A stretch of DNA of 64,000 bases from Planctomycetota bacterium (lineage in GTDB: Bacteria; Planctomycetota; UBA8742; UBA2392): NCBI GenBank assembly GCA_027493625.1, contig JAOSKM010000001.1, positions 1,812,657 to 1,876,656 of the forward strand, given 5' to 3'. Positions 9,276 to 56,557 of the stretch are shown here, piece after piece; within the stretch, counting starts at the first letter, position 1; each line of letters starts with the position of its first letter. The translations under genes and the position numbers were made by a program. Under the pieces are notes generated by a model that did no database searches, was not told where the DNA came from, and was given only the letters and a program-made list of their open reading frames with translations.

Positions 9276-13663
<4,388 letters not shown>

Positions 13664-17064: not shown

Positions 17065-17098
17065 GACCCGAGTTTGCAAAACGAGGCCGACGATGGAA

Positions 17099-17172
17099 GT
17101 AGGGATACGCTGCCGCGTGTCCCTGCGAAGGGCGGATGTTCCGTGCGGGGACACGCTGCCGCGTGTCCCTAC
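17099..17172. repeat. two REP family A hairpins (GGGAYACGC-TGCC-GCGTGTCCC)
   Basis: Hairpins at 17101-17124 and 17147-17170. GTAG flanks lie at 17099 (+) and 17172 (-). Confidence 0.85.
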
Positions 17173-19317: not shown

Positions 19318-20446
19318 TTACGCCTTCACGCCCATCTTGGCTCCGCAGTTAACGCAGAACTTGGCGTCGGGCAGGTTTTCGTGGCCGCACTCGCCGCACT
19401 TGGGCTTGGTACCCATCTTGAAGCCGCAATCGGGGCAGAACTTGGCGTCGGCCTTGATGCTCACGCCGCAGCTGGGGCAGCGCTTTTCCACCAGCATGGC
19501 CTCACCGCAGTGGGTGCAGAAGCGCGCGCCCTTCTCGTTGGCGCCCTGGCACTTCGGGCAGGCGATGTAGTCGTCGGCCTTTTTGCCCTGCTGCTGCAAC
19601 TGCGCCGCCTGCTGCTGGTTGAGCTGGTTGAACATCATGCCCGGCATCATCATGCCCATCATCATGCCTGCGCTGTTGCCCGTGCCCGGGTTCTTGGCCA
19701 TGTCGCGCATGGCGTCGGCCATCTGGAACTGGGCGTACTTGCTGGCGTCGCCCAAGGCACCCATCTCGGCGCGCTTGTCTACGGCCTTCTGGACGCTTTC
19801 CGGCAGGTTGAAGTTATTGATGAAAAAACTCTTCGAGCGCGATGCCGAACTTCGCCATGCTCGCGTTGAGGTGCGGCTTCATGGCCTCGGCGAACTCTTT
19901 GTAATGGCCGGGCAGGTCGAGGATCGACTTCATGTTGGTGCCGAGCCAGTCGTTGACGTGGCTGACGATCAGGTCACGAAGATAATCCTCAATCTCGTCG
20001 GTTCTAAAACTGTCGTCCTGGCCCACGAGGTTGTTGATGAACACCAGGGGCTCGGTCACGCGGATGGCAAAGCGCCCGAAGCCGCGCACGCGCACCAGGC
20101 CGAAGTCGGTGTCGCGCAGGGTGATGGGCTCCTTGGTGCCCCACTTCAGGTCGGCGAAGATCTTCGTGTTCACGAAGTACACTTCGGTCCGGATCGGCGA
20201 CTTGAAGCCCCATGGCAGGCTCAGCAGCTTGGTGATCACCGGAATGTTGGCCGTGGTGATGGTGTGGCGCCCCGGCGGGAAGATGTCGGCCGCCTTGCCG
20301 CCGCAGCAGAAGATGGCGACCTGGTTCTCGCGCACGATGCACTGCCCGCCCAGCTTGAACTCGGCGCTGCCGCGCTCAGGGATGCGGTGGCTGATCTCGT
20401 CCGCGCGTGTTTCCTGGTACTCGATGATCTCAAGGAAGATGCCCAT
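19318..20446 (-). CDS. SPFH/band-7-like protein with C-terminal multi zinc-ribbon tail (COG4260-type), split by a 1-nt frameshift
   Basis: ORFs 19814-20446 and 19318-19764 join (..ALEEFF|INNFNLPESVQKAVDKRAEMGALGD..) if the A6 run at 19823-19828 is A5. The tail has four CxxC pairs. Confidence 0.75.
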
Positions 20447-20677
20447 GTTCGCTCCGCTGCAGGTTTCTGGTTACCGGTTTCGGGGCAGTGCCCCTGAATC
20501 CCGGCCGGAATAGTAGCACCTGTGCACGTTGCCGTGCATTCCAAACCCGCGTGCAGTGTGTAAGCCCGCTTGGCCGCTTCTGACACACCGCTGCATCGGA
20601 ATCGCGACGAATACAGTTGCTTTTTTTTGTGATGGGGTACACTTCTTGTCCCCGCGCATCAACGCTGGAGCCTTCAG

Positions 20678-21619
20678 ATGCCGATCGGAGTGAACGCAAT
20701 CCGGCTTGCCGACGATGTTCGCGAACGCGACCTCATCGAAACCCGCCCGTTCAAGATTCAGCACTTCGACATCCTGCCGTTCCGGGAAGTCGTCGGCGGG
20801 CGCGACCTGTACACGCGCACCAACGAGTTCGTGGACTTCGGCGTCAACCTCGACAACTGCGCCAAGATCGAGGAGCAGACACCGCTGCCGGACACGGAGG
20901 TTCGCTACGAGTTCGTGCTGCTCGGCACCATGTTCCGCGTCTGCTACACGGCGCAGGACCGCTTCCGCGTGCCGAACAACATCGTGCAGATCGTCAAGCG
21001 CCTCGCCACGCGACGCCTGCGCTACAAGTTCTCGCGCATCATGGACACCGGCGACGGCGCGTTTCCGTCACTGGAATCGCTGGCAGGAACGGTGATTCCC
21101 GTCGGGGCGGCGCTGACGCTGACCAACCTTGACGACGCTTGGCTCAGTGTCCACGAAAACGACGGCCACGCCAACGCCATCTTCTGCTACAGCGACGGCC
21201 TCAAAGCAATCTGGGAGGCGCACTACTCGCGTAGCATCAACCCGACTTACGAGCCGGAACACTTCCCTGATCCGATTGAAGGCATGAGGGCCAGCCTGCG
21301 CCCGTGCCTGCACGGCGTGCGCATTTACGTGAACGATTTGATCGAGTCCCGTCCGCAACCCGACGGCACGTTCCTCACCAACATCTACTTTGCACTGGTG
21401 GGCGACTCCGGCCGCAACGAAGGCCGCGGCTTGACGGCCATCATCCCGCCGATGCAGGACGGAGACATGTTCACGTTTCGGATGACGCCGGTGGTGACGG
21501 ACACCGTATCGCTTTCGACAATCAACGTAGACGCGATGTGGCCGGTAGGCCTGTCCATCGGCAGCCCCAGCGCCCTGAGCATGTTGAAGGACGTGCTGGT
21601 AACCCCACTCGGAGCATAG
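20678..21619 (+). CDS. candidate HK97-fold shell protein (phage major capsid / family-2 encapsulin-like), 313 aa
   Basis: GGAG lies 8 nt upstream of the ATG. The C-terminal pattern TNIYFALVGDSGRNEGRGL...MWPVGLSIGSPSALSMLKDV and the N-terminal FREVVGGRDLYTRTNEF recall HK97-type capsid and SrpI-like shells. This is motif recall only. Confidence 0.4.
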   Translation: MPIGVNAIRLADDVRERDLIETRPFKIQHFDILPFREVVGGRDLYTRTNEFVDFGVNLDNCAKIEEQTPLPDTEVRYEFVLLGTMFRVCYTAQDRFRVPNNIVQIVKRLATRRLRYKFSRIMDTGDGAFPSLESLAGTVIPVGAALTLTNLDDAWLSVHENDGHANAIFCYSDGLKAIWEAHYSRSINPTYEPEHFPDPIEGMRASLRPCLHGVRIYVNDLIESRPQPDGTFLTNIYFALVGDSGRNEGRGLTAIIPPMQDGDMFTFRMTPVVTDTVSLSTINVDAMWPVGLSIGSPSALSMLKDVLVTPLGA

Positions 21620-21622
21620 ACT

Positions 21623-22426
21623 ATGGCGAACGAAGAGGGCTGCCCAAGCTGTGGCGACCACACCTTTCCGCGATCCATGCACCTGAGGGCAGGCGACGCG
21701 GAAGCCATGCGCAGCATGCTTGAATCCGTGGAGGTCCGGCCATACAACCCGAAAGCGCCTCCAGCCGCCACTGACATGGAATTGCTGTTCGACGAGGGAC
21801 TCGATGCGCATGTCGGCGAGGCATTTGCACCCACCGAATATATTTTGCCGGAACACGGACGAGTCCAGTCCCTACGCGAAATCCAGGAAACGGGACCACG
21901 GCCGCAGGCTGCGTACTTCATGGTCGACAACCCATCAGTCGAAGGCAACAGCGTAGGCGGTAAAGTGACAGGCCAAGGCATTGATCCCGAAACCTTCATG
22001 TACCAAGATGCAACATCGGCGGCACTCTGGCTATTGCTGGCGGACGATGATCCCAACGAAGACTACGAAGAGAGGTTGAGGAAATGGCGGTTGGCGCAGA
22101 GACTCGGACTGGAGGGCATCTTGTTCCCGGGAGGGAAACCAAAGCGCCGAAAGAGACCATTGCCACCCTCTCCTACACCAACACTACCCAAACCCAAAGT
22201 CGTTGTGGACACGTCAGTACGCGATTGTATCGACAAGTGTCGGAACGACTTCGCCAAGGCGAATGAGCAATTCGGTAAAGATCTGGCTGCATGTGATCGG
22301 TTTTTGCCGGACAAGGCTCGTTTCACGGCATGTGCGGCTCTCGCTCTTCAAACTTGGATCAGCGCTCACGCGAAGTACCTTGCTTGTCGGGATGAGTGCT
22401 ACAAGATTCCATGGAAACGAAAGTAA
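21623..22426 (+). CDS. hypothetical bipartite protein: acidic N-terminal region, Pro/Lys linker, Cys-rich helical C-terminal domain
   Basis: GGAG lies 8 nt upstream, and the gap to the previous stop is 3 nt. It contains LLLADDDPNEDYEERL, then GGKPKRRKRPLPPSPTPTLPKPK, then 6 Cys in the last ~65 aa. Confidence 0.5.
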   Translation: MANEEGCPSCGDHTFPRSMHLRAGDAEAMRSMLESVEVRPYNPKAPPAATDMELLFDEGLDAHVGEAFAPTEYILPEHGRVQSLREIQETGPRPQAAYFMVDNPSVEGNSVGGKVTGQGIDPETFMYQDATSAALWLLLADDDPNEDYEERLRKWRLAQRLGLEGILFPGGKPKRRKRPLPPSPTPTLPKPKVVVDTSVRDCIDKCRNDFAKANEQFGKDLAACDRFLPDKARFTACAALALQTWISAHAKYLACRDECYKIPWKRK

Positions 22427-23914
22427 ATGGTGCCAACGCAGCCGGCAGAATATTTACGACTGATGCTGCCGCTTTTCATGGCAGTATTGCTTGCCTGTTG
22501 CACATGCCCGCCGAGTGTTGATCATGAATCAGTGCCCGCTTCCGAGTCGGTGACGTACGCATATCTGCTCTACAATCGAGGGACATGTTTCGGGTGGCGC
22601 ACTGAGAGCGTCAATTATGAGAGTGTGTCAGGCCAAGTGTTGCTAAATACGAGAATTGAAACGGTCGTCAAGACGCAAGATGTATTTTATCGCGGTAGTA
22701 CGATAGACCACTCAGTCATGAACATTACGCAGACTAGTGCAGGCCGTTTCGTTCGGATCAATCAAGCCGTTGATAACGGACACCAAAATCGACGTACTGA
22801 AATCGTGTGGCGTGGCGAAACGGTAACCATGTCCCGCTACCTCGATGGGTCCGTCGCTTCTGTTGATGAATTGCCGAGAGAGGTTTTGCCAGACGCCGAG
22901 ATATGGCCTTTGGTACTTCATGCAGTTGGTAAACATCCTCTAGTCACTTCAATTACACGCAGCATTTCTAGAAGCCCCGTTCCACCTCTACCATTGCCTA
23001 ACGCTGAGTGGCTCTCAGTTCGACTCAATGGAATTGAAATCACTTGCGCAGCGAATGACGCCGGTACGGCTGTTTTCGCATGGTTTCCTGACGGAACTAC
23101 TGCTCGACTTGTACCTCAAATACCAGCCGAGTTTGAGCCAACTGTGCTGCACAGGAACGGGATTGTCCCTGTGGATCGCACCATACAGCAGCCAGAGGAC
23201 CTGCTTAGGCTTACAATAGTAGTTCCCGAAACACCTCAAGTAAGAAAAGTGGCTGGTGGTTTTGAGGAATGTGGGCGCGAGTACCAAGATGTACACATTT
23301 CGGTGCAAGGAGTTGTCATCACACTTAAGGCGGGCTTCGGCACGACATTCGACATGGAGGTACCGTTCCCGCTGCCTGCTATCCCCGAAACGATTAGCGG
23401 CTACTTGGGTCCCTCCTTGCTGTGCGAGTCCGATGACCCTGCAATAGTCGAGACGGCTCAGATGTTGGTTGCGACGCATACTTCTGCCGCCGAGAGTGCC
23501 AAGGCGCTGGGTGAGTTTGTGTATCAGTACTTGGCAGATGATTCTGCAAGCGTTACGAATGCCAGTGCAAGGTATGCGTTACGCAATGGGCGTGGCGATT
23601 GTACAGCCCATGCTCATCTGGTTATTGCGTTGGCACGCGCCGCAGGTATTCCCGCGAGGCTTGCGGGCGGACTGCTTTACGACTCCACCGAAGAATTCGG
23701 CGCAATCTTCGCATTTCACTCGTGGGCGGAACTGTGGCTCGGAAAATGGACGCCGGTTGATGCGACATTTGGTCCGCGCGACTTCCCGGCCCGCTATCTT
23801 CTCCTTGATTACGGCCACGACTCCAGCGATCTTGGTGACGGTATTCTACGCGCTCATGCGTGGGTGTGGTCGTCCTTAGGCGCCAAAGTGTTGGATTACG
23901 AGTATCGCAGGTAG
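22427..23914 (+). CDS. lipoprotein with C-terminal transglutaminase-like cysteine protease core
   Basis: The ATG abuts the previous TAA. The lipobox is LLAC/C. The Cys-His-Asp core reads GRGDCTAHAHL...FHSWAELW...PVDATF. It has the lowest GC in the window. Confidence 0.7.
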   Translation: MVPTQPAEYLRLMLPLFMAVLLACCTCPPSVDHESVPASESVTYAYLLYNRGTCFGWRTESVNYESVSGQVLLNTRIETVVKTQDVFYRGSTIDHSVMNITQTSAGRFVRINQAVDNGHQNRRTEIVWRGETVTMSRYLDGSVASVDELPREVLPDAEIWPLVLHAVGKHPLVTSITRSISRSPVPPLPLPNAEWLSVRLNGIEITCAANDAGTAVFAWFPDGTTARLVPQIPAEFEPTVLHRNGIVPVDRTIQQPEDLLRLTIVVPETPQVRKVAGGFEECGREYQDVHISVQGVVITLKAGFGTTFDMEVPFPLPAIPETISGYLGPSLLCESDDPAIVETAQMLVATHTSAAESAKALGEFVYQYLADDSASVTNASARYALRNGRGDCTAHAHLVIALARAAGIPARLAGGLLYDSTEEFGAIFAFHSWAELWLGKWTPVDATFGPRDFPARYLLLDYGHDSSDLGDGILRAHAWVWSSLGAKVLDYEYRR

Positions 23915-24242: not shown

Positions 24243-25712
24243 ATGTCCATGCGAGATCATTCGGCAAAGCCGAACTTGCCGCAGAAAAGCACTGCTTTTC
24301 AAGGCAAGTTCCAGGTCTACAGCAAGCAGCACCTCGAGACCTTGCCCCAGCTGCAGAAACTGACACCCGACCACCGCCTGGCCATGCGCGCCGTGGCGGA
24401 AGTGCTGCCCTTCCGCGTGAACAACTATTTGGTGGAAGAGCTGATCGACTGGGACAACGTCCCCAACGACCCCGTCTTCCAGCTCACCTTCCCGCAGCCC
24501 GGCATGCTGGCCCGTGAAGACTTCGGCCTGCTGTGCGGCATGCTCAAGCGCAACGCCCCCGCGGCCGAACTGGCAGCCGAGGTCAAGCGCATCCGCTATT
24601 CGCTCAATCCGCACCCGGCCGGGCAGAAGTCGCTAAACGTGCCGCACGAGAACGGCCAGCCCGTGGCGGGCATGCAGCACAAGTACCGCGAAACGGTGCT
24701 GTTCTTCCCCATGGCCGGCCAGACCTGCCACGCCTATTGCACCTACTGCTTCCGCTGGCCGCAGTTCGTGGGGCTGGACGACATGAAGTTCGCCAGCAAA
24801 GAGGCAGCCGGGCTGGTCGAGTACCTGAAAGCGCACAAGGAAGTCACCAGCGTGCTGATCACAGGCGGCGACCCGATGATCATGCGCACGCAACTGCTGC
24901 GGCAATACGTCGAGCCGCTGCTGGGCCCCGGGCTTGAGCACGTGGCAAGCATCCGCTTCGGCACGAAGGCACCGGCCTACTGGCCCTACCGTTTCACCCA
25001 GGGCGAAGACGCCGACGACCTGATGCGCCTGATTGGCGAAATCCGCGCCGCGGGCAAAGACGCGGCCATTATGGCCCACTTCAGCGTGCTGCGCGAACTG
25101 CAGACCGAGGTCGCCCAGGCGGCCGTGAAGCGGCTGGTGGGCGCGGGCGCGACGGTGCGCACGCAGGCGCCGCTGATCCGGCACGTGAACGACAACGCGG
25201 ACAACTGGGCGCAGATGTGGCGCAAGCAGGTCAGCCTGGGGGCGATCCCGTACTACATGTTCATCGAGCGAGATACCGGGGCGCGCGGCTACTTCGAGGT
25301 GCCCCTGTGGCGCGCCTACATGATTTTCACCGAGGCCTACCGGCAGGTGACCGGCCTGGCGCGCACGGTACGCGGCCCCAGCATGAGCTGCACGCCGGGC
25401 AAGGTGCTGATCAGCGGCGTGGCGGAGGTGAAGGGGGAAAAGGCCTTCGTGCTGAAGATGCTGCAGGGGCGCGACCCGGCCTGGGTGAACCAGGTGTTTT
25501 TCGCCAGGTACGACCAGCGCGCGGCGTGGATGGATCAGCTGAAGCCGGCCTTCGGCGAGCAGGAGTTCTTCTTCGAGGAAGGCATGCGCCAGATGCTCGA
25601 AAGCGGCGAGGCGCGCGTGTGGCTGCCCACGGAAGTGGACGCCCTGGAAGAAACCTGGCGCATGGAAAGCGTAGAGCCCGACCACGAACACGACCGCAAG
25701 CGCGACAAGTAG
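24243..25712 (+). CDS. KamA-family radical SAM protein (lysine 2,3-aminomutase-like), paralog 1
   Basis: AAGGAG RBS. The CHAYCTYC (CxxxCxxC) cluster lies within AGMQHKYRETVLFFPMAGQTCHAYCTYCFRW. The stop TAG is inside a GTAG-REP. Confidence 0.8.
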   Translation: MSMRDHSAKPNLPQKSTAFQGKFQVYSKQHLETLPQLQKLTPDHRLAMRAVAEVLPFRVNNYLVEELIDWDNVPNDPVFQLTFPQPGMLAREDFGLLCGMLKRNAPAAELAAEVKRIRYSLNPHPAGQKSLNVPHENGQPVAGMQHKYRETVLFFPMAGQTCHAYCTYCFRWPQFVGLDDMKFASKEAAGLVEYLKAHKEVTSVLITGGDPMIMRTQLLRQYVEPLLGPGLEHVASIRFGTKAPAYWPYRFTQGEDADDLMRLIGEIRAAGKDAAIMAHFSVLRELQTEVAQAAVKRLVGAGATVRTQAPLIRHVNDNADNWAQMWRKQVSLGAIPYYMFIERDTGARGYFEVPLWRAYMIFTEAYRQVTGLARTVRGPSMSCTPGKVLISGVAEVKGEKAFVLKMLQGRDPAWVNQVFFARYDQRAAWMDQLKPAFGEQEFFFEEGMRQMLESGEARVWLPTEVDALEETWRMESVEPDHEHDRKRDK

Positions 25713-25851
25713 GGACACGCTGCCGCGTGTCACGCACCACAACCGGGGACAGGCACGTTCCGTGCCTGTCCCCATTCCGCGTTCATGGCACGTAGGGACA
25801 CGCTGCTGCGTGTCCCCGGATGGCGGGCAGGGACACGCGGCCGCGTGTCCC
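25709..25851. repeat. cluster of four REP family A hairpins
   Basis: Hairpins at 25712-25733, 25745-25773 (GGGGACAGGCAC-GTTCC-GTGCCTGTCCCC), 25795-25817 and 25830-25851. Confidence 0.9.
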
Positions 25852-26522: not shown

Positions 26523-26972
26523 CTAGCGGCCGGCGCCTTCTACTGCGGCGACGAAGTCCTGCGGGTCTTTGAATTCGCGGTAGACGCTGGCGAAGCGTAC
26601 GTAGGCGACTTTGTCGACGCTCTTGAGGCGGTCCATGATCATTTCGCCGATCACGCGTGTGGGTACTTCGCGCTCGAACTTCTTGCTGACCTCGTTCTCG
26701 ATCGCGGTCACGATGTCGTCGATCTGCGCGGCGCTGACCGGGCGCTTTTCGCAGGCACGCTGGATGCCGTAACGGATCTTCTCGCGGTCGAAGGGTGCGC
26801 GACTGCCGTCTTTCTTGATCACGCGCAGGGGAGTTTCCTCGATGCGCTCGTAGGTCGTGAAGCGCTTGTGGCAGGCCAGGCACTCGCGGCGGCGGCGCAC
26901 CACGGCGCCGTCGGCCGAGGAACGCGAGTCCACGACGCGGTCTTTGTCGACGTTGCAGAACGGGCAGCGCAT
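26523..26972 (-). CDS. nrdR: transcriptional repressor NrdR
   Basis: MRCPFCN...CLACHKRFTTYE zinc ribbon plus an ATP-cone. The start is at 26972 inside ORF 26523-27077. Confidence 0.9.
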   Translation of the reverse strand: MRCPFCNVDKDRVVDSRSSADGAVVRRRRECLACHKRFTTYERIEETPLRVIKKDGSRAPFDREKIRYGIQRACEKRPVSAAQIDDIVTAIENEVSKKFEREVPTRVIGEMIMDRLKSVDKVAYVRFASVYREFKDPQDFVAAVEGAGR

Positions 26973-27150
26973 GGGATCTCCGGTCTGGTCGCGGGAGGGG
27001 GATCGCAACCAGTGGTGTATGATCGGGGATGCTAGCAGGTTGGTATGGCGGATTCGACGGTTCGCCGCTGCCGACACACAAAATTTTGTGGTGGTGGGCC
27101 ATTCGCGCCAAATCTAACCATCCAGTTACACCCCATAAGGACCCCCTTGG

Positions 27151-40229: not shown

Positions 40230-40863
40230 GCCTGCGGAGCAGGCCAACAACCGTTAGCCCCCGGCGTAAGCCGGGGGTATCGGAGCACCAAAGATTCCAG
40301 AGCCGCGGAGCGGCGACACAACTCATTCGCCAATGAACTCCGGGTCACCAATGAAGTCATACTTCTCCAGCAACCGCCGCAACTCTTCCTGCAAGGAAAC
40401 CGTAGCGTGGTGCTCCTGCTGGTTCTTGATGTAGTCCACGACCATGCCGACATGGCTCTGGCTGATGGAGAAGCCGCCATAGCCTCGCTGCCAGCCGAAT
40501 TTCGATGTTCGCAACTCTTCGTTCATGTGGCGGGACGAGTTCGCCTTCAGCTTGTTGACCACGTCCGCCAGCGCCAGCGTGGCGGGTAAATCAATCAGCA
40601 GGTGTGTGTGGTCGGAGACGCTGTTCAGGCGATGCAGGTAGACGTTCAGGTTCTTGAGCACGCCGACCATGTAACCTTCGAGCTTGGGTTTGAGGTCCGG
40701 CGTGATGATTGCGGTGCGGTCTTTGGTCGCGAACACAAGGTGCACCAGCAGCCGGGTGTAGGTATGCGCCATTTGTGTCGCCGCTCCGCGGCTCGGGTGA
40801 ACGGGCGGCATGATACCCCCAGCTTACGCTGGGGGCTAACGGTTGTTGGCCTGCTCCGCAGGC
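40230..40863 (-). mobile_element. RAYT unit: Y1 transposase gene bracketed by nested inverted repeats
   Basis: The outer 52-bp IR is 40230-40281 / 40812-40863 (50/52, the two differences are compensatory in a hairpin). The inner perfect 20-bp IR is 40302-40321 / 40773-40792. Confidence 0.8.
40323..40772 (-). CDS. IS200/IS605-family Y1 (HUH) transposase homolog, REP-associated (RAYT-like)
   Basis: MAHTYTRLLVHLVFATKDR...SDHTHLLI (HUH-type) ...FGWQRGYGGFSIS (Tyr region) ...QQEHH. The start is at 40772 inside ORF 40323-40811. Confidence 0.85.
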   Translation of the reverse strand: MAHTYTRLLVHLVFATKDRTAIITPDLKPKLEGYMVGVLKNLNVYLHRLNSVSDHTHLLIDLPATLALADVVNKLKANSSRHMNEELRTSKFGWQRGYGGFSISQSHVGMVVDYIKNQQEHHATVSLQEELRRLLEKYDFIGDPEFIGE

Positions 40864-46376: not shown

Positions 46377-47687
46377 CTATTCGTGCTTTTCGAACTTCTG
46401 GATGTCCTCGGGCTTGAGGTACTGGCGCACGTCCTTGATCAGCATGTCCGGCGCCAGCCAGTTCACGCCCTGCACCTCCGCGAGCGCGGGCGGCACGTAG
46501 GTACAGTAGGGCTCGCTGGCCAGGTAGTCGCCGGTCACCGCGAACGCCCGTGAGCGCGCGCCGCCGCACACATCGCGGTAGTCGCAGGCCCAGCACTTGC
46601 CCTTGAGCCGCGAAAAGTCGCGCATCGCCTTCAGGTGCGGGTTGTTGCGGTAGATCTCGACGATCGACTTCTCCTTCACGTTGCCGCACTTCAGCGGCAG
46701 AAAGCCGCTGGGGTACACCTCGCCCACGTGGTCAATGAAGATGAAACCGTTGCCGTCGTTCACGCCGCGGCCGGCACGCCCGATCGCGTCGCCGCGCGAC
46801 CAGCCGCCCGGCTTCATGTCGCGCAGCACCCAGGCGGGCGGGCCATCGGACTTGCGATCCTCGGGGCTGCCCTCACCGCTGCGGGGGCGCAGGTACTTGC
46901 CGCTGTCGTTGCTGCGCCCTTCGCTGCGCTGGTGCTGCAGCACCACGCGCCGGTAGTGGGGTGCTGCCGTGGTCTTGAGGTCGAAGTCGGCCTTCTTGGC
47001 CGTCTCGTACAGCTTGTTGAGCGCCTGCTCGTATTGCTCGGGGCTGATTTCGTCGGTCTCTTCGCCGCGGCCGGTGGGCACCAGGAAGAACGCGGCCCAC
47101 AGCGTGAGGCCCAGCTGCTGCATCAACTCGCACAGGTTGTCGATGTCGTTCATGTTCCAGCGCGAGATGGTGGTGTTGATCTGGACGGTCAGGCCCTCGG
47201 CCTGCGCGTCCTTGATCGCGCGGATGGTGTGGTCGTAGCTGCCGGGCTGGCGCCGGAAGTTGTCGTGGATCTCGGCTGTTGACCCGTCAAGGCTGATGGC
47301 CATGCGCGTCAGCCCGTTCTGCTTCATCTCGTGGATGGCCTCGCGCGTGAGCAGGCCGGTGGCGCTGGGCGTGACGGCCACGCGCAAGCCGATGGAGTCG
47401 GCGTACTTGATGTACTCCATGGTGTAGGGCGATTTTAAAGGATCGCCGCCGGTCAGCACGAACAGCGGCGGCGCTGTTTCGCTGAAGGCGCGCAACTCGT
47501 CGATCAGTTTAAATCCCTGCTCCTTGGTGAGCTCGCGCTCGTCGCGGTTGGGGATGGCCTCGGCGCGGCAGTGCACGCAGCGCAGGTCGCAGGCGCGGGT
47601 GACCTCCCAGATCGCGATGAACGGCGCCTTCTCGAAGTCGATGTCGAAGAAGTTGGGCTTGCTGCGGTGTTCTACGGATTTCGCCAT
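46377..47687 (-). CDS. radical SAM/SPASM domain protein
   Basis: GGAGG lies 5 nt upstream of ATG 47687. The CDLRCVHC (CxxxCxxC) cluster is present. The C-terminal Cys-rich SPASM-like region reads CGNV...CWACDYRDVCGG...CTY. Confidence 0.75.
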   Translation of the reverse strand: MAKSVEHRSKPNFFDIDFEKAPFIAIWEVTRACDLRCVHCRAEAIPNRDERELTKEQGFKLIDELRAFSETAPPLFVLTGGDPLKSPYTMEYIKYADSIGLRVAVTPSATGLLTREAIHEMKQNGLTRMAISLDGSTAEIHDNFRRQPGSYDHTIRAIKDAQAEGLTVQINTTISRWNMNDIDNLCELMQQLGLTLWAAFFLVPTGRGEETDEISPEQYEQALNKLYETAKKADFDLKTTAAPHYRRVVLQHQRSEGRSNDSGKYLRPRSGEGSPEDRKSDGPPAWVLRDMKPGGWSRGDAIGRAGRGVNDGNGFIFIDHVGEVYPSGFLPLKCGNVKEKSIVEIYRNNPHLKAMRDFSRLKGKCWACDYRDVCGGARSRAFAVTGDYLASEPYCTYVPPALAEVQGVNWLAPDMLIKDVRQYLKPEDIQKFEKHE

Positions 47688-47769
47688 CACGGCCTCCAAC
47701 CCCGCATGATAACGCCCTGATGCAATGCCGCCATGGCGGTGCAGGCTGTGGAAAAGCGGCCGTCAACCT

Positions 47770-49082: not shown

Positions 49083-49382
49083 ATGCTTGCACTCCCGGCT
49101 GCCTTGCGGGATGGTCAAACCGCGTGCACCGCCGCCCACGGCAGCCGGCGAATGGGCGGATGCGCACGTGAACGCAGAACGATCGGCGGGCGGGACGACT
49201 TTTCCCGATCATCCGGAACAGCCCGAAAAAACCCCCGGCATTGCTCGATGCTGCAACCATTGAGACAGGGAGCTGCCCGCGCGCGGCGGCCGAAAACACG
49301 GTTTCCGGGACGGGCTCGGGCGGATCCGGCGTTTCGCCCTTAACCGTCCGCCGCCCGTCCCGGACTCAACGTGGAGGCCGCC

Positions 49383-50723
49383 ATGCCGATTGCGCCTCAA
49401 CTTCGCTTCTACACGGCGCGTGACATCGACAGCCTGCCGCAGCTGCAGGCCCTGCCCGCCGAGCAGCGCCTGGACATGAAAGCCGTCGCGGCCGTGCTGC
49501 CCTTTCGCGTCAACCAGTACGTGATCGACCAGCTGATTGACTGGTCGAACATCCCGTCCGACCCGATCTTCCAGCTCACGTTCCCCCAGCGCGGCATGCT
49601 CAGCGAGCACAACTTCAAGCTGATGCGCGAGCTGATCGCCAAAGGCGCGCCACAGGCCGAAGTGAAAGCCGCGGCCGAGAAAATCCAGCGTTCCCTGAAC
49701 CCGCACCCCTCGGGCCAGATCAACCTGAACGTGCCGCTGGACGCCCAGGGCAAGCGCCTGCCGGGCATGCAGCACAAGTACCGCGAAACCGTGCTGTTCT
49801 TCCCGATGGCCGGCCAGACCTGCCACAGCTACTGCCAGTACTGCTTCCGCTGGGCGCAATTCGTGGGCCTGCAGGACCTCAAGTTCGCGGCCCGCGAGGC
49901 CGAGCAGCTGGTCGAGTACCTGAAGCGCCACAAGGAAGTCACCAGCGTGCTGTTCACGGGCGGCGACCCCATGGTGATGGGCGCGCCCGTGCTGCGCCGC
50001 TACATCGAGCCGCTGCTGGGCAAGGGGCTCGAGCATGTCCAGAGCATCCGCATCGGCACCAAGGCGCCGGCGTACTGGCCCTATCGCTACACCAGCGACG
50101 CGGACGCCGACGACGTGCTGCGGCTGTACGAGCAGGTGCAGGCCTCGGGCCGCACCATGGCGCTGATGGTGCATTACTGTCATCCGCGCGAGCTGCAGAC
50201 CGAGGCCGCGCAGGCGGCGCTGAAGCGCATGCGGGATTCGGGCGCCGAGGTGCGCTGCCAGGCGCCGCTGATCCGGCACATCAACGACAACCCGGAAACC
50301 TGGCGCGAACTGTGGGACCTGGAGGTACGCCTGGGCGCGCATCCCTACTACATGTTCGTGGAGCGCGACACCGGCGCGCGCGGCTATTTCGAGGTGCCGC
50401 TGGTCAAGGCCTACGAGATCTACTCACAGGCATATCGCTCCGTGACGGGTCTCGCACGCACGGTGCGCGGGCCGGTGATGTCCTGCATGCCGGGCAAGGT
50501 CGTGGTGGATGACGTGACGGAGTACGGCGGCGAGCAGGTGATCGTGCTGAAGATGATCCAGGGCCGCAACCCGGAGTGGGTGAACCGCACGTTCCTGGCA
50601 AAGCGCGACGACAAAGCCACCTGGTTCGATCAGCTCAAGCCCGCCGGCAAACCCTGGTTCTTCGGCGACGAGCTGCAGCAGATGATCGAAAGCGGCAACG
50701 CCCGGCCGTGGGAGAACGTGTAG
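49383..50723 (+). CDS. KamA-family radical SAM protein, paralog 2
   Basis: GGAGG lies 5 nt upstream of ATG 49383. The CHSYCQYC cluster is present. The protein is colinear with 24243-25712. The stop TAG is inside a GTAG-REP. Confidence 0.8.
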   Translation: MPIAPQLRFYTARDIDSLPQLQALPAEQRLDMKAVAAVLPFRVNQYVIDQLIDWSNIPSDPIFQLTFPQRGMLSEHNFKLMRELIAKGAPQAEVKAAAEKIQRSLNPHPSGQINLNVPLDAQGKRLPGMQHKYRETVLFFPMAGQTCHSYCQYCFRWAQFVGLQDLKFAAREAEQLVEYLKRHKEVTSVLFTGGDPMVMGAPVLRRYIEPLLGKGLEHVQSIRIGTKAPAYWPYRYTSDADADDVLRLYEQVQASGRTMALMVHYCHPRELQTEAAQAALKRMRDSGAEVRCQAPLIRHINDNPETWRELWDLEVRLGAHPYYMFVERDTGARGYFEVPLVKAYEIYSQAYRSVTGLARTVRGPVMSCMPGKVVVDDVTEYGGEQVIVLKMIQGRNPEWVNRTFLAKRDDKATWFDQLKPAGKPWFFGDELQQMIESGNARPWENV

Positions 50724-53172: not shown

Positions 53173-53306
53173 GGGACAGGCACCCTTTTCACGGTGCAAG
53201 TTCGGCTTTGCTGGTGCGATGAACGCTGACCGGGGACAGTCACCAAGGTGACTCTCCCCGGTTGTGGGAAATGAAGAGGGGACAGGCACGCAACGTGCCT
53301 GTCCCC
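53173..53306. repeat. three REP family A copies
   Basis: 53173-53197 (half copy), 53231-53262 (ggggacagtcac-caag-gtgactctcccc) and 53278-53306 (perfect). Confidence 0.85.
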
Positions 53307-53325
53307 GGTCGTGGCTGATCTGCCG

Positions 53326-56497: not shown

Positions 56498-56505
56498 GAA
56501 AGCGA

Positions 56506-56538
56506 CCGGGGACAGGCACGTTCCGTGCCCGTCCCCGG
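56506..56538. repeat. REP family A hairpin between convergent genes
   Basis: ccggggacaggcac-gttcc-gtgcccgtccccgg. Confidence 0.85.
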
Positions 56539-56557
56539 TTGCGGTCCGGTTTGCCGG

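Follow-up and report, generated by a model that had tools for sequence, protein, structure and literature searches.

A solitary HK97-fold shell gene with modular, polymorphic partner genes in a Planctomycetota bacterium: a candidate encapsulin-like system

Encapsulins fall into four recognised families, which arose by separate captures of HK97 capsid genes and carry metabolic enzymes as fixed cargos. An encapsulin is defined by an HK97-fold shell, icosahedral self-assembly and dedicated cargo loading (PMC8346489). Here, we describe a three-gene operon from a Planctomycetota bacterium (assembly GCA_027493625.1, contig JAOSKM010000001.1), located in a stretch of 64,000 nucleotides (nt; positions 1,812,657 to 1,876,656 of the forward strand), which we call the window and number from its first letter. 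Open reading frame 1 (ORF1; 20678-21619, + strand) encodes a 313-residue HK97-fold capsid-like shell protein, ORF2 (21623-22426, +) a 267-residue modular protein that is a candidate cargo, and ORF3 (22427-23914, +) a 495-residue exported, lipoprotein-like protein with a C-terminal transglutaminase/papain-like core. An earlier note on this DNA had proposed a solitary, encapsulin-like HK97-fold shell with non-phage partners. The fold, the genomic context and the recurrence of the locus support that proposal, and we infer shell assembly, binding of ORF2 to the shell, cargo loading and the placement of the payload inside or outside the particle. Our preferred reading is an encapsulin-like shell with a modular, polymorphic cargo, to which we assign a probability of about 0.5.

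Cargo loading in described encapsulins provides the frame for ORF2. The mycobacterial desulfurase of the Mmp1/Enc-CD system has a disordered N-terminal region of 155 residues with three conserved motifs (residues 1-21, 35-55 and 107-121); loading depends on this region, and none of the motifs suffices by itself (PMC11659603). In terpene cyclase cargos, the disordered termini contain short motifs rich in Gly, for example GPTGLGT (PMC8346489). A different class of modular proteins is formed by the polymorphic toxins, whose hallmarks are a constant N-terminus, a variable C-terminus and a downstream immunity gene, and which include the MuF class packaged in phage heads (PMC3482391).

The HK97 fold of ORF1, suspected in the earlier note, was confirmed by a confident AlphaFold2 model. 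With close homologs alone, the predicted local distance difference test score was 36.6; with an alignment of 49 full-length relatives (A3), it reached 90.8, with a predicted template modelling score of 0.85. The model begins with an N-terminal helix and continues with a beta hairpin and long strands, a 23-residue spine helix and a middle domain of mixed alpha/beta type; a beta sheet forms the C-terminal end. This order of elements is the one expected for an HK97 protein. When the model was compared with the PDB by Foldseek, the seven top-ranked structures were all family 2 encapsulin shells (8t6r, 8wol, 9bje, 6x8m, 9bix, 8won and 9bhu), with E 3e-17 to 7e-13 and template modelling (TM) scores up to 0.77. 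Capsids of phages, gene transfer agents and satellites ranked below them, at E 1e-11 and weaker, a ranking that is to be read with the caveat that the PDB may contain no capsid structure of the phrog_212 type. Among the predicted viral structures of BFVD, the named matches listed were all capsid proteins (best 8.5e-15). The best 50 matches listed from each of the two databases consisted of capsids and encapsulin shells throughout.

The affiliation of ORF1 by sequence differs from the structural ranking in its emphasis. Direct scans with ORF1 returned no match in Pfam (E ≤ 1), PHROGs, NCBIfam, PADLOC or the PDB sequences, and phrog_212 (major head protein) was missed at E ≤ 1. Homologs were rare, with only seven among 5.8 billion proteins, and an exhaustive profile search recovered 103 relatives among 1.84 billion representatives. 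The phrog_212 profile was matched by 32 of the 49 family members. PF19307 matched three of the 49 relatives (best 1.3e-5) and did not match ORF1. The family profile aligned to the PDB family 2 shells over positions 29-313 with E 2e-16 to 6e-10. On the scale of the A3 hidden Markov model (HMM), seven phage capsids from IMG/VR scored 127-144 bits and the capsid of phage Sonora 118 bits, versus 63 bits for the best family 2 shell. The alignment of A3 with the Sonora major capsid protein (MCP) by hhalign reached 99.6% with E 2e-23 over 294 columns, and tblastn aligned ORF1 itself to the same protein with 26.5% identity over 83% of ORF1. The A3 comparison is biased, as distant A3 members may themselves be phage capsids; an HMM of the narrow, window-type clade (A1) agreed in direction, giving phage capsids 16-26 bits and no match at E ≤ 1 to the PDB family 2 shells. 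Taken together, the profile scores place ORF1 in an HK97 lineage that contains real phage capsids; the family 2 shells are its more remote relatives and, among solved structures, its nearest matches. ORF1 is a separate capsid offshoot. Membership of ORF1 in encapsulin family 2 was considered and rejected, as PF19307 gave no match and phage MCPs outscored family 2 on one scale.

With phage capsids as the nearest sequence relatives (Sonora at 26.5%; 118-144 versus 63 bits), ORF1 could be the leftover capsid of a prophage, without function, with ORF2 and ORF3 as unrelated chance neighbours. Frame lesions in the shell genes of three groups of related loci (L005-7, L008 and L014) and fibre-like genes near distant relatives, both detailed below, point the same way. 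The substitution pattern argues against this. The ratio of nonsynonymous to synonymous rates (ω) between ORF1 of the window and of locus L012 was 0.054, at a synonymous divergence (dS) of 0.53; against L005 it was 0.09-0.12, with dS of 0.5-1.0 across the close relatives. The shell gene is intact in the window and in L012, L011, L001, L015 and L010. Nor are the close homologs prophage-borne: the surroundings of the close and intermediate relatives are chromosomal and differ from one another, and Pfam showed no phage family in the 10 kb around them. Their neighbours encode a peptidase S8 and DHDPS in L001, an extracytoplasmic function sigma factor and a peptidase M14 in L005, vWA-type proteins in L008 (a Planctomycetota metagenome-assembled genome, MAG), an Mrp antiporter, TPR proteins and a helicase in L015 (on a 469-kb contig), and in L012 the same SPFH protein as in the window. 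The pairing of shell gene and ORF2-like module is kept across differing chromosomal contexts, and the ORF2 module was never found apart from shell loci. The window-type clade (A1) had no relative among 2.9 million viral contigs; a metagenome scan with A1 gave no locus, and a scan of genomes yielded a single one, the Planctomycetota MAG L008. The intermediate clade matched viral contigs at 23-29% identity only. Because ω is low, the codon composition host-like and the settings chromosomal and free of phage genes, ORF1 is not a decaying remnant, and we regard the remnant explanation of the whole locus as unlikely.

The second gene of the operon is built of a constant N-terminal module and a variable C-terminal part. 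ORF2 matched no family in Pfam, PHROGs, NCBIfam, PADLOC or the PDB sequences. Its leading motif (residues 1-45; 21623-21757, +), C-x2-C-x-DHTFPR[AS]MHL followed by ~25 residues, was defined by alignments and a motif scan and holds the only two Cys residues of the N-terminal region; in close relatives, an acidic stretch stands ahead of C-x2-C. Next comes an acidic, Pro-rich linker (residues 46-105; 21758-21937, +), delimited by composition and charge-hydropathy and variable in both length and sequence, with a net charge of -9 over residues 46-112. The second motif, VEGNSVGG (residues 106-113; 21938-21961, +; consensus [FY]xMxxDxxVEG[ND]SVG), marks the boundary between the constant and the variable part. 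It was present in six of the seven ORF2-like proteins (window and six variants), at residue 93-150 owing to the variable linker length, and ended in GG, GS or GA in most of them. The remainder, residues 114-267 (21962-22426, +), is strain-specific, as judged by BLAST and by G+C content at third codon positions (GC3). ORF2 resembled the six variants (two in L005 and one each in L008, L011, L012 and L014) only over the first 110-150 residues. By BLAST (E ≤ 0.01), the seven C-terminal parts were unrelated to one another with one exception, a weak alignment between L008 and L012 (27% identity) that extended past the second motif. These parts comprise 110-311 residues with 2-11 Cys each and are mostly Cys-rich; ORF2 ends in a basic, helical-looking stretch of 75 residues, whose six Cys include two C-x3-C pairs (C202/C206 and C255/C259; nt 22226-22399). 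No Pfam or PADLOC domain was found in any of the seven proteins. Outside shell loci, the N-terminal module was not found among 5.8 billion proteins, and searches with ORF2 alone and with a profile of the module retrieved only themselves and one known variant.

An ORF2-like gene lies directly 3′ of the shell gene in the window and in L005-7, L008, L011, L012-13 and L014, with differing flanking genes. The three-gene synteny anticipated in the earlier note therefore stands for the shell-plus-ORF2 pairing, which recurs in at least six loci, and does not stand for ORF3, which is not syntenic elsewhere. In L005, two full module-plus-partner cassettes are arranged in tandem behind a single shell gene. 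The clearest view of the arrangement is given by L012, where the SPFH neighbour is the same and the shell is 95% identical in protein and ~93% in DNA, and the cassette is different. DNA identity between the window and L012 falls at the ORF1/ORF2 junction, recovers partially at the leading motif and at the VEGNS codons, and is otherwise absent. The shell gene is thus seen to be constant and the cassette behind it replaceable. In the window, the cassette spans 21760-23900 (ORF2 from the linker on, and ORF3), limits that its foreign composition also marks. The G+C fraction (GC) is 0.46-0.58 within these limits versus 0.61-0.65 across most of ORF1; along the profile, it declines from ~0.62 in ORF1 to 0.46-0.53 over the C-terminal part of ORF2 and most of ORF3, and returns to 0.62-0.64 by 23.8-24.1 kb, against a window background of ~0.66. 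GC3 is 0.84 in ORF1 and 0.89 in the flanking SPFH and KamA-like genes, and drops to 0.66 in residues 1-114 of ORF2, 0.56 in residues 115-267 and 0.52 in ORF3. The earlier note had described the whole unit as low in GC. Its two hand counts, 54/120 at 22621-22740 and 47/60 at 9301-9360, were reproduced exactly, and its description holds for the C-terminal part of ORF2 and for ORF3 but not for the shell gene, which has host-like GC3. The foreign-looking, low-GC portion is the 3′ two thirds of the operon, and the dip is explained by cassette replacement.

ORF3 belongs to the strain-specific portion. As had been proposed, it combines a lipoprotein-like start with a transglutaminase core. The hydrophobic signal sequence (residues 1-24; 22427-22498, +) ends in a lipobox-like LLAC with Cys24, identified by a regular expression and by reading of the sequence. 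The core (residues 343-446; 23453-23764, +) matched the Pfam family Transglut_core with E 4e-20 and aligned with the putative cysteine protease 3isr of the PDB (E 8e-4); the motif positions suggest Cys392 (GRGDC), His431 (FHSW) and Asp445 (PVDAT) as candidate catalytic residues. The third genes of the related loci are mutually unrelated, and each has a signal-like or lipobox-like start. They encode 178-495 residues: 495 in the window, 229 and 240 in L005, 178 in L008, 405 in L011 and 296 in L014. The L011 partner contains carboxypeptidase-regulatory-like repeats, and a transglutaminase-like third gene occurs only in the window among the loci compared. None of ORF2, ORF3 and the variants is a cysteine desulfurase, terpene cyclase, polyprenyl transferase or xylulose kinase, in agreement with the earlier suggestion that the cargo falls outside the known classes.

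The GG, GS or GA ending of the second motif, placed ahead of Cys-rich variable domains, could also be read as a double-glycine cleavage site. ORF2 would then be a secreted, bacteriocin-like peptide or protein, cleaved after VEGNSVGG and unrelated to the shell, and the papain-like core of ORF3, which we take to be of the same clan as the leader peptidases, would fit such a scheme. No peptidase-ABC exporter is present in the operon or in the window neighbourhood, however, and the hydrophobic spacing before the GG of ORF2 presumably does not fit the double-glycine consensus. With 100-150 residues for the "leader" and as many as 310 for the "core", the proportions are unusual for such a protein; a transglutaminase-like third gene is present in the window alone, and the module is strictly linked to the shell gene. 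We consider this explanation highly improbable. A double-glycine-leader reading, or one as a ribosomally synthesised and post-translationally modified peptide, was set aside on the same grounds (no exporter, wrong spacing, domains too large). A reading as a defence system was unsupported by PADLOC.

We propose that a small group of Planctomycetota-like bacteria domesticated a phage-type HK97-fold capsid gene, which they keep as a solitary shell gene. ORF1 would most likely self-assemble into a closed, portal-less, encapsulin-like particle. ORF2 would be the client, with its constant N-terminal region tethering it to the shell by analogy with the cargo loading region of family 2, and its C-terminal domain would be a payload open to exchange. 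Together with the gene for the exported partner behind it, here ORF3, this payload would make up a cassette swapped by recombination between close strains. The function of the payload is probably conflict-related, given its polymorphism.

A specific functional form of this proposal, with the same anatomy, is a polymorphic toxin/immunity system in which the capsid-derived shell acts as a container or delivery vehicle. The Cys-rich C-terminal domains would be toxins held harmless in the shell until their release or their delivery to competitors, and the exported lipoproteins would be the cognate immunity proteins, active in the periplasm. The constant N-terminus and the unrelated C-termini between close strains, the variable gene directly 3′ of each, the tandem cassettes of L005 and the exchange of cassettes between loci with 95% identical shells all conform to such a system, and Cys-rich payloads are expected for proteins working outside the cytoplasm. 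Fibre-like proteins, found near distant relatives, could target the particle. Leucine-rich repeat (LRR) immunity proteins and trafficking by phage heads (MuF) occur in known systems (PMC3482391), and an LRR protein is encoded 3′ in L001. On the other hand, Pfam and PADLOC revealed no toxin domain in the payloads and no immunity family in the partners. The partners are large (178-495 residues) and exported, whereas known immunity proteins are nearly all small and cytoplasmic (PMC3482391). ORF3, judged by its motifs, appears to resemble an active enzyme rather than an inhibitor, the operon contains no secretion or lysis gene, and literature searches returned no link between encapsulins and polymorphic toxins. 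We hold the toxin form to be a serious, if less probable, possibility. About as doubtful is a more explicit version, according to which the locus would encode a DNA-free, capsid-derived particle that carries interchangeable Cys-rich effectors for bacterial competition or kin discrimination. The exported lipoproteins would then be immunity factors and the fibre-like proteins would target the particle in related lineages, which we regard as equally speculative. Such a particle would be the encapsulin-like counterpart of tailocins. Old reports described encapsulins as "linocin" bacteriocins, of which this version is a possible echo.

The distant relatives show a second architecture. In L015 (11028-15434), L010 (6005-9085) and L001 (10964-14719), whose shell proteins are 32%, 36% and 47% identical to ORF1, the shell gene is followed by a gene for a protein of 65-110 residues with an acidic start and a C-G-C pair, and then by a gene for a large protein. 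The large proteins of L001 and L015 have a Trp-rich N-terminal region in common, and Pfam detected no domain in the 525-residue protein of L001. L015 and L010 additionally encode proteins with ARFDGxxGxxIQNS repeats and weak matches to tail-fibre PHROGs, which are related to each other (E 1e-13). All three loci are chromosomal, and no head-morphogenesis genes were found in them. The LRR protein downstream in L001 has a lipobox-like start. The distant loci suggest a graded series with a structural module of a phage at one end and a lone shell plus clients at the other. Homology of the small "CGC" proteins to the ORF2 module was suspected from the acidic Cys-pair start and was not demonstrated.

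The position of the "CGC" protein directly after the distant shell genes bears on a further alternative, in which ORF2 is an assembly or decoration factor, scaffold-like or bound to the outside, with a variable, surface-exposed C-terminus serving, for example, adhesion or antigenic variation. The Cys pair may then be an old shell-binding element, and proteins exposed at a surface are typically variable. Parallel roles have been proposed for scaffolds and the cargo of encapsulins (bioRxiv 10.1101/2025.06.18.659913). In the phage relatives, however, the capsid gene has the scaffold-like gene on its 5′ side, and the gene on its 3′ side is without the Cys-pair module. Scaffolds do not characteristically have variable C-termini of 110-311 residues that come with individual partner genes, and the homology of the CGC proteins is not established. 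A role of ORF2 in assembly or decoration is, in our assessment, distinctly unlikely.

Several observations weigh against an encapsulin-like shell with polymorphic cargo. The shell gene is frame-disrupted in L005-7, where three separate assemblies share the same 1-nt insertion at codon ~32, and carries two frame lesions in L008 and one in L014 (shell gene coordinates 3766-4708 in L005, 10001-10936 in L008 and 2-1029 in L014). The shell may accordingly be dispensable or decaying in some lineages. The cassettes downstream of the disrupted genes are still open. Two explanations fit these lineages: dispensability of the N-terminal arm, for which a GTG restart exists at codon 45, or ongoing loss of the shell. 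In sequence, moreover, real phage capsids are nearer to the shell than the members of any encapsulin family, and the fibre-like proteins adjoining the L015 and L010 relatives are a reminder of phage ancestry. Particle formation by ORF1 and its binding of ORF2 are predictions from sequence and a monomer model. The disorder of the ORF2 N-terminal region comes from a crude charge-hydropathy estimate that lies close to the boundary. Finally, beyond the ORF3 transglutaminase core, Pfam and PADLOC recognised no domain in the payloads and partners tested, which for Pfam included six ORF2 variants and three partners.

The organisation and surroundings of the operon are those of an ordinary chromosomal unit. 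The three + strand ORFs have the coordinates and lengths (313, 267 and 495 residues) given in the earlier note, and the intergenic gaps of 3 and 0 nt (TAG 21617-19/ATG 21623 and TAA 22424-26/ATG 22427) are exact. A GGAG motif precedes the ORF1 and ORF2 starts by 9-10 nt (9 nt before the ORF1 ATG), and this motif together with the tight spacing suggests co-transcription. Scans for sigma-70 promoters and terminators yielded nothing above chance, including the region upstream of ORF1. That region (20447-20677), between the divergent SPFH gene and ORF1, is the presumed promoter region and is poorly conserved in L012. The flanking genes are chromosomal, as had been stated: an SPFH/Band_7 gene (E 1e-60) on one side and a KamA-like gene with a weak radical-SAM match on the other, with zinc ribbons and MlaD (Pfam) as further neighbours. 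No terminase, portal, protease, tail or integrase gene was found by PHROG among the other 37 window proteins (among the best 25 of 37 matched families), again in accordance with the earlier note; the PHROG families listed were of housekeeping type, plus one transposase. No transfer RNA genes were found in the window and no repeats flanking the operon, so there is no integration signature.

Some features of the neighbourhood were noted in passing. The SPFH/Band_7 gene (19318-20446, - strand) is broken into ORFs of 210 residues (SPFH) and 148 residues (zinc ribbon) by a frameshift in a T-run near 19825-19833, with a tblastn frame switch at residue ~205. The L012 copy is intact with 375 residues, and the split in the window is either a sequencing error or a recent pseudogene. 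The ORF at 26523-27077 (-) has an NrdR-like zinc-ribbon start (MRCPFCN…DSR…C..C..RF.T.E, judged by eye), which supports the ordinary chromosomal setting. The KamA-like gene at 24243-25712 has a paralogue 25 kb away, at 49371-50723 (both +), with a similar N-terminal "…LPQLQ.L….R…M.AVA"; near the latter, the ORF at 46377-47699 (-) may, by its sequence, encode a radical-SAM protein. Perfect palindromes resembling repetitive extragenic palindromic (REP) elements (GGGACACGCTGCCGCGTGTCCC) and a second palindrome family (GGGACAGGCACGTTCCGTGCCTGTCCCC) recur between genes of the window; the positions noted for the two families together are ~17097-17172, ~25707-25851, 25745-25773, 53278-53314 and 56505-56541. 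The palindromes do not directly flank the operon, and they create spurious ORFs with recurring peptide strings. A 162-residue ORF at 40323-40811 (-), with the start …HTYTRLLVHLVFATKDR…, resembles an IS200/REP-associated tyrosine transposase and may be linked to the palindromic repeats. The PHROG "transposase" match (1.7e-18) belongs to one window protein and was not attributed to a particular ORF.

The ORF1 locus would be an encapsulin-like system whose shell goes back to a capsid capture of its own and whose clients are modular and turn over fast. Such a capture would be a very rare further case, closer to living phage capsids than to any known encapsulin family. In literature searches, neither a description of this shell lineage nor a connection of encapsulins to polymorphic cargo or to toxins came up. 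If the proposal is true, a single loading region serves a range of unrelated payloads that change quickly and come with individual exported partners, and it would provide a natural plug-and-play loading tag for a new shell. A protein compartment would then act in a variable, probably conflict-related role rather than in metabolism. The related genomes, with their intact, truncated and fibre-associated versions, would offer a snapshot of capsid domestication. Proof of a conflict role would bring the system close to a new category.

Among known systems, the phage major head proteins of PHROG 212, such as the MCP of the Stenotrophomonas phage Sonora (MZ326860.1), have detectable sequence homology to ORF1. 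The Sonora gene lies in a TerS-TerL-portal-minor capsid-MCP-tail module, and the IMG/VR relatives in portal-scaffold-MCP-connector modules, whereas the window has no such genes. Unlike Sonora, the window shell has host-like codon composition, is under strong purifying selection and belongs to a clade without IMG/VR relatives. The internal proteins of T4-type phages are small and highly variable, and a short N-terminal sequence that is conserved among them directs them into a capsid of HK97 type; they are part of a complete phage and are cleaved by its prohead protease. In contrast, neither a phage nor a prohead protease is present at the window locus. With polymorphic toxins, the locus shares the constant N-terminal and unrelated C-terminal parts, a variable partner 3′, tandem cassettes and replacement between near-identical loci. 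It differs from them in having no known toxin, pre-toxin, trafficking or immunity domain, in its large exported partners, and in that the conserved neighbour is a capsid-type shell gene and not a secretion system.

The family 2A encapsulins, which have a cysteine desulfurase cargo, include SrpI of Synechococcus elongatus (6x8m), Mmp1/MMP-I of mycobacteria (8wol) and the shell of Acinetobacter baumannii (8t6r). ORF1 departs from them in that PF19307 gave no match, the narrow-clade profile found no family 2 shell, and phage capsids scored about twice as high as family 2 shells on the family profile. The candidate client is also different: it is none of the four enriched cargo types, is polymorphic between close strains and has an exported partner, a combination not described in the encapsulin literature compared. 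Nevertheless, the window locus and family 2A have in common a shell of ~300 residues with the HK97 fold and no cyclic-nucleotide-binding (cNMP) domain (TM 0.71-0.77, E 3e-17 to 8e-16), profile homology over nearly the full length, and a solitary chromosomal shell gene beside a client with a long N-terminal region of short conserved motifs.

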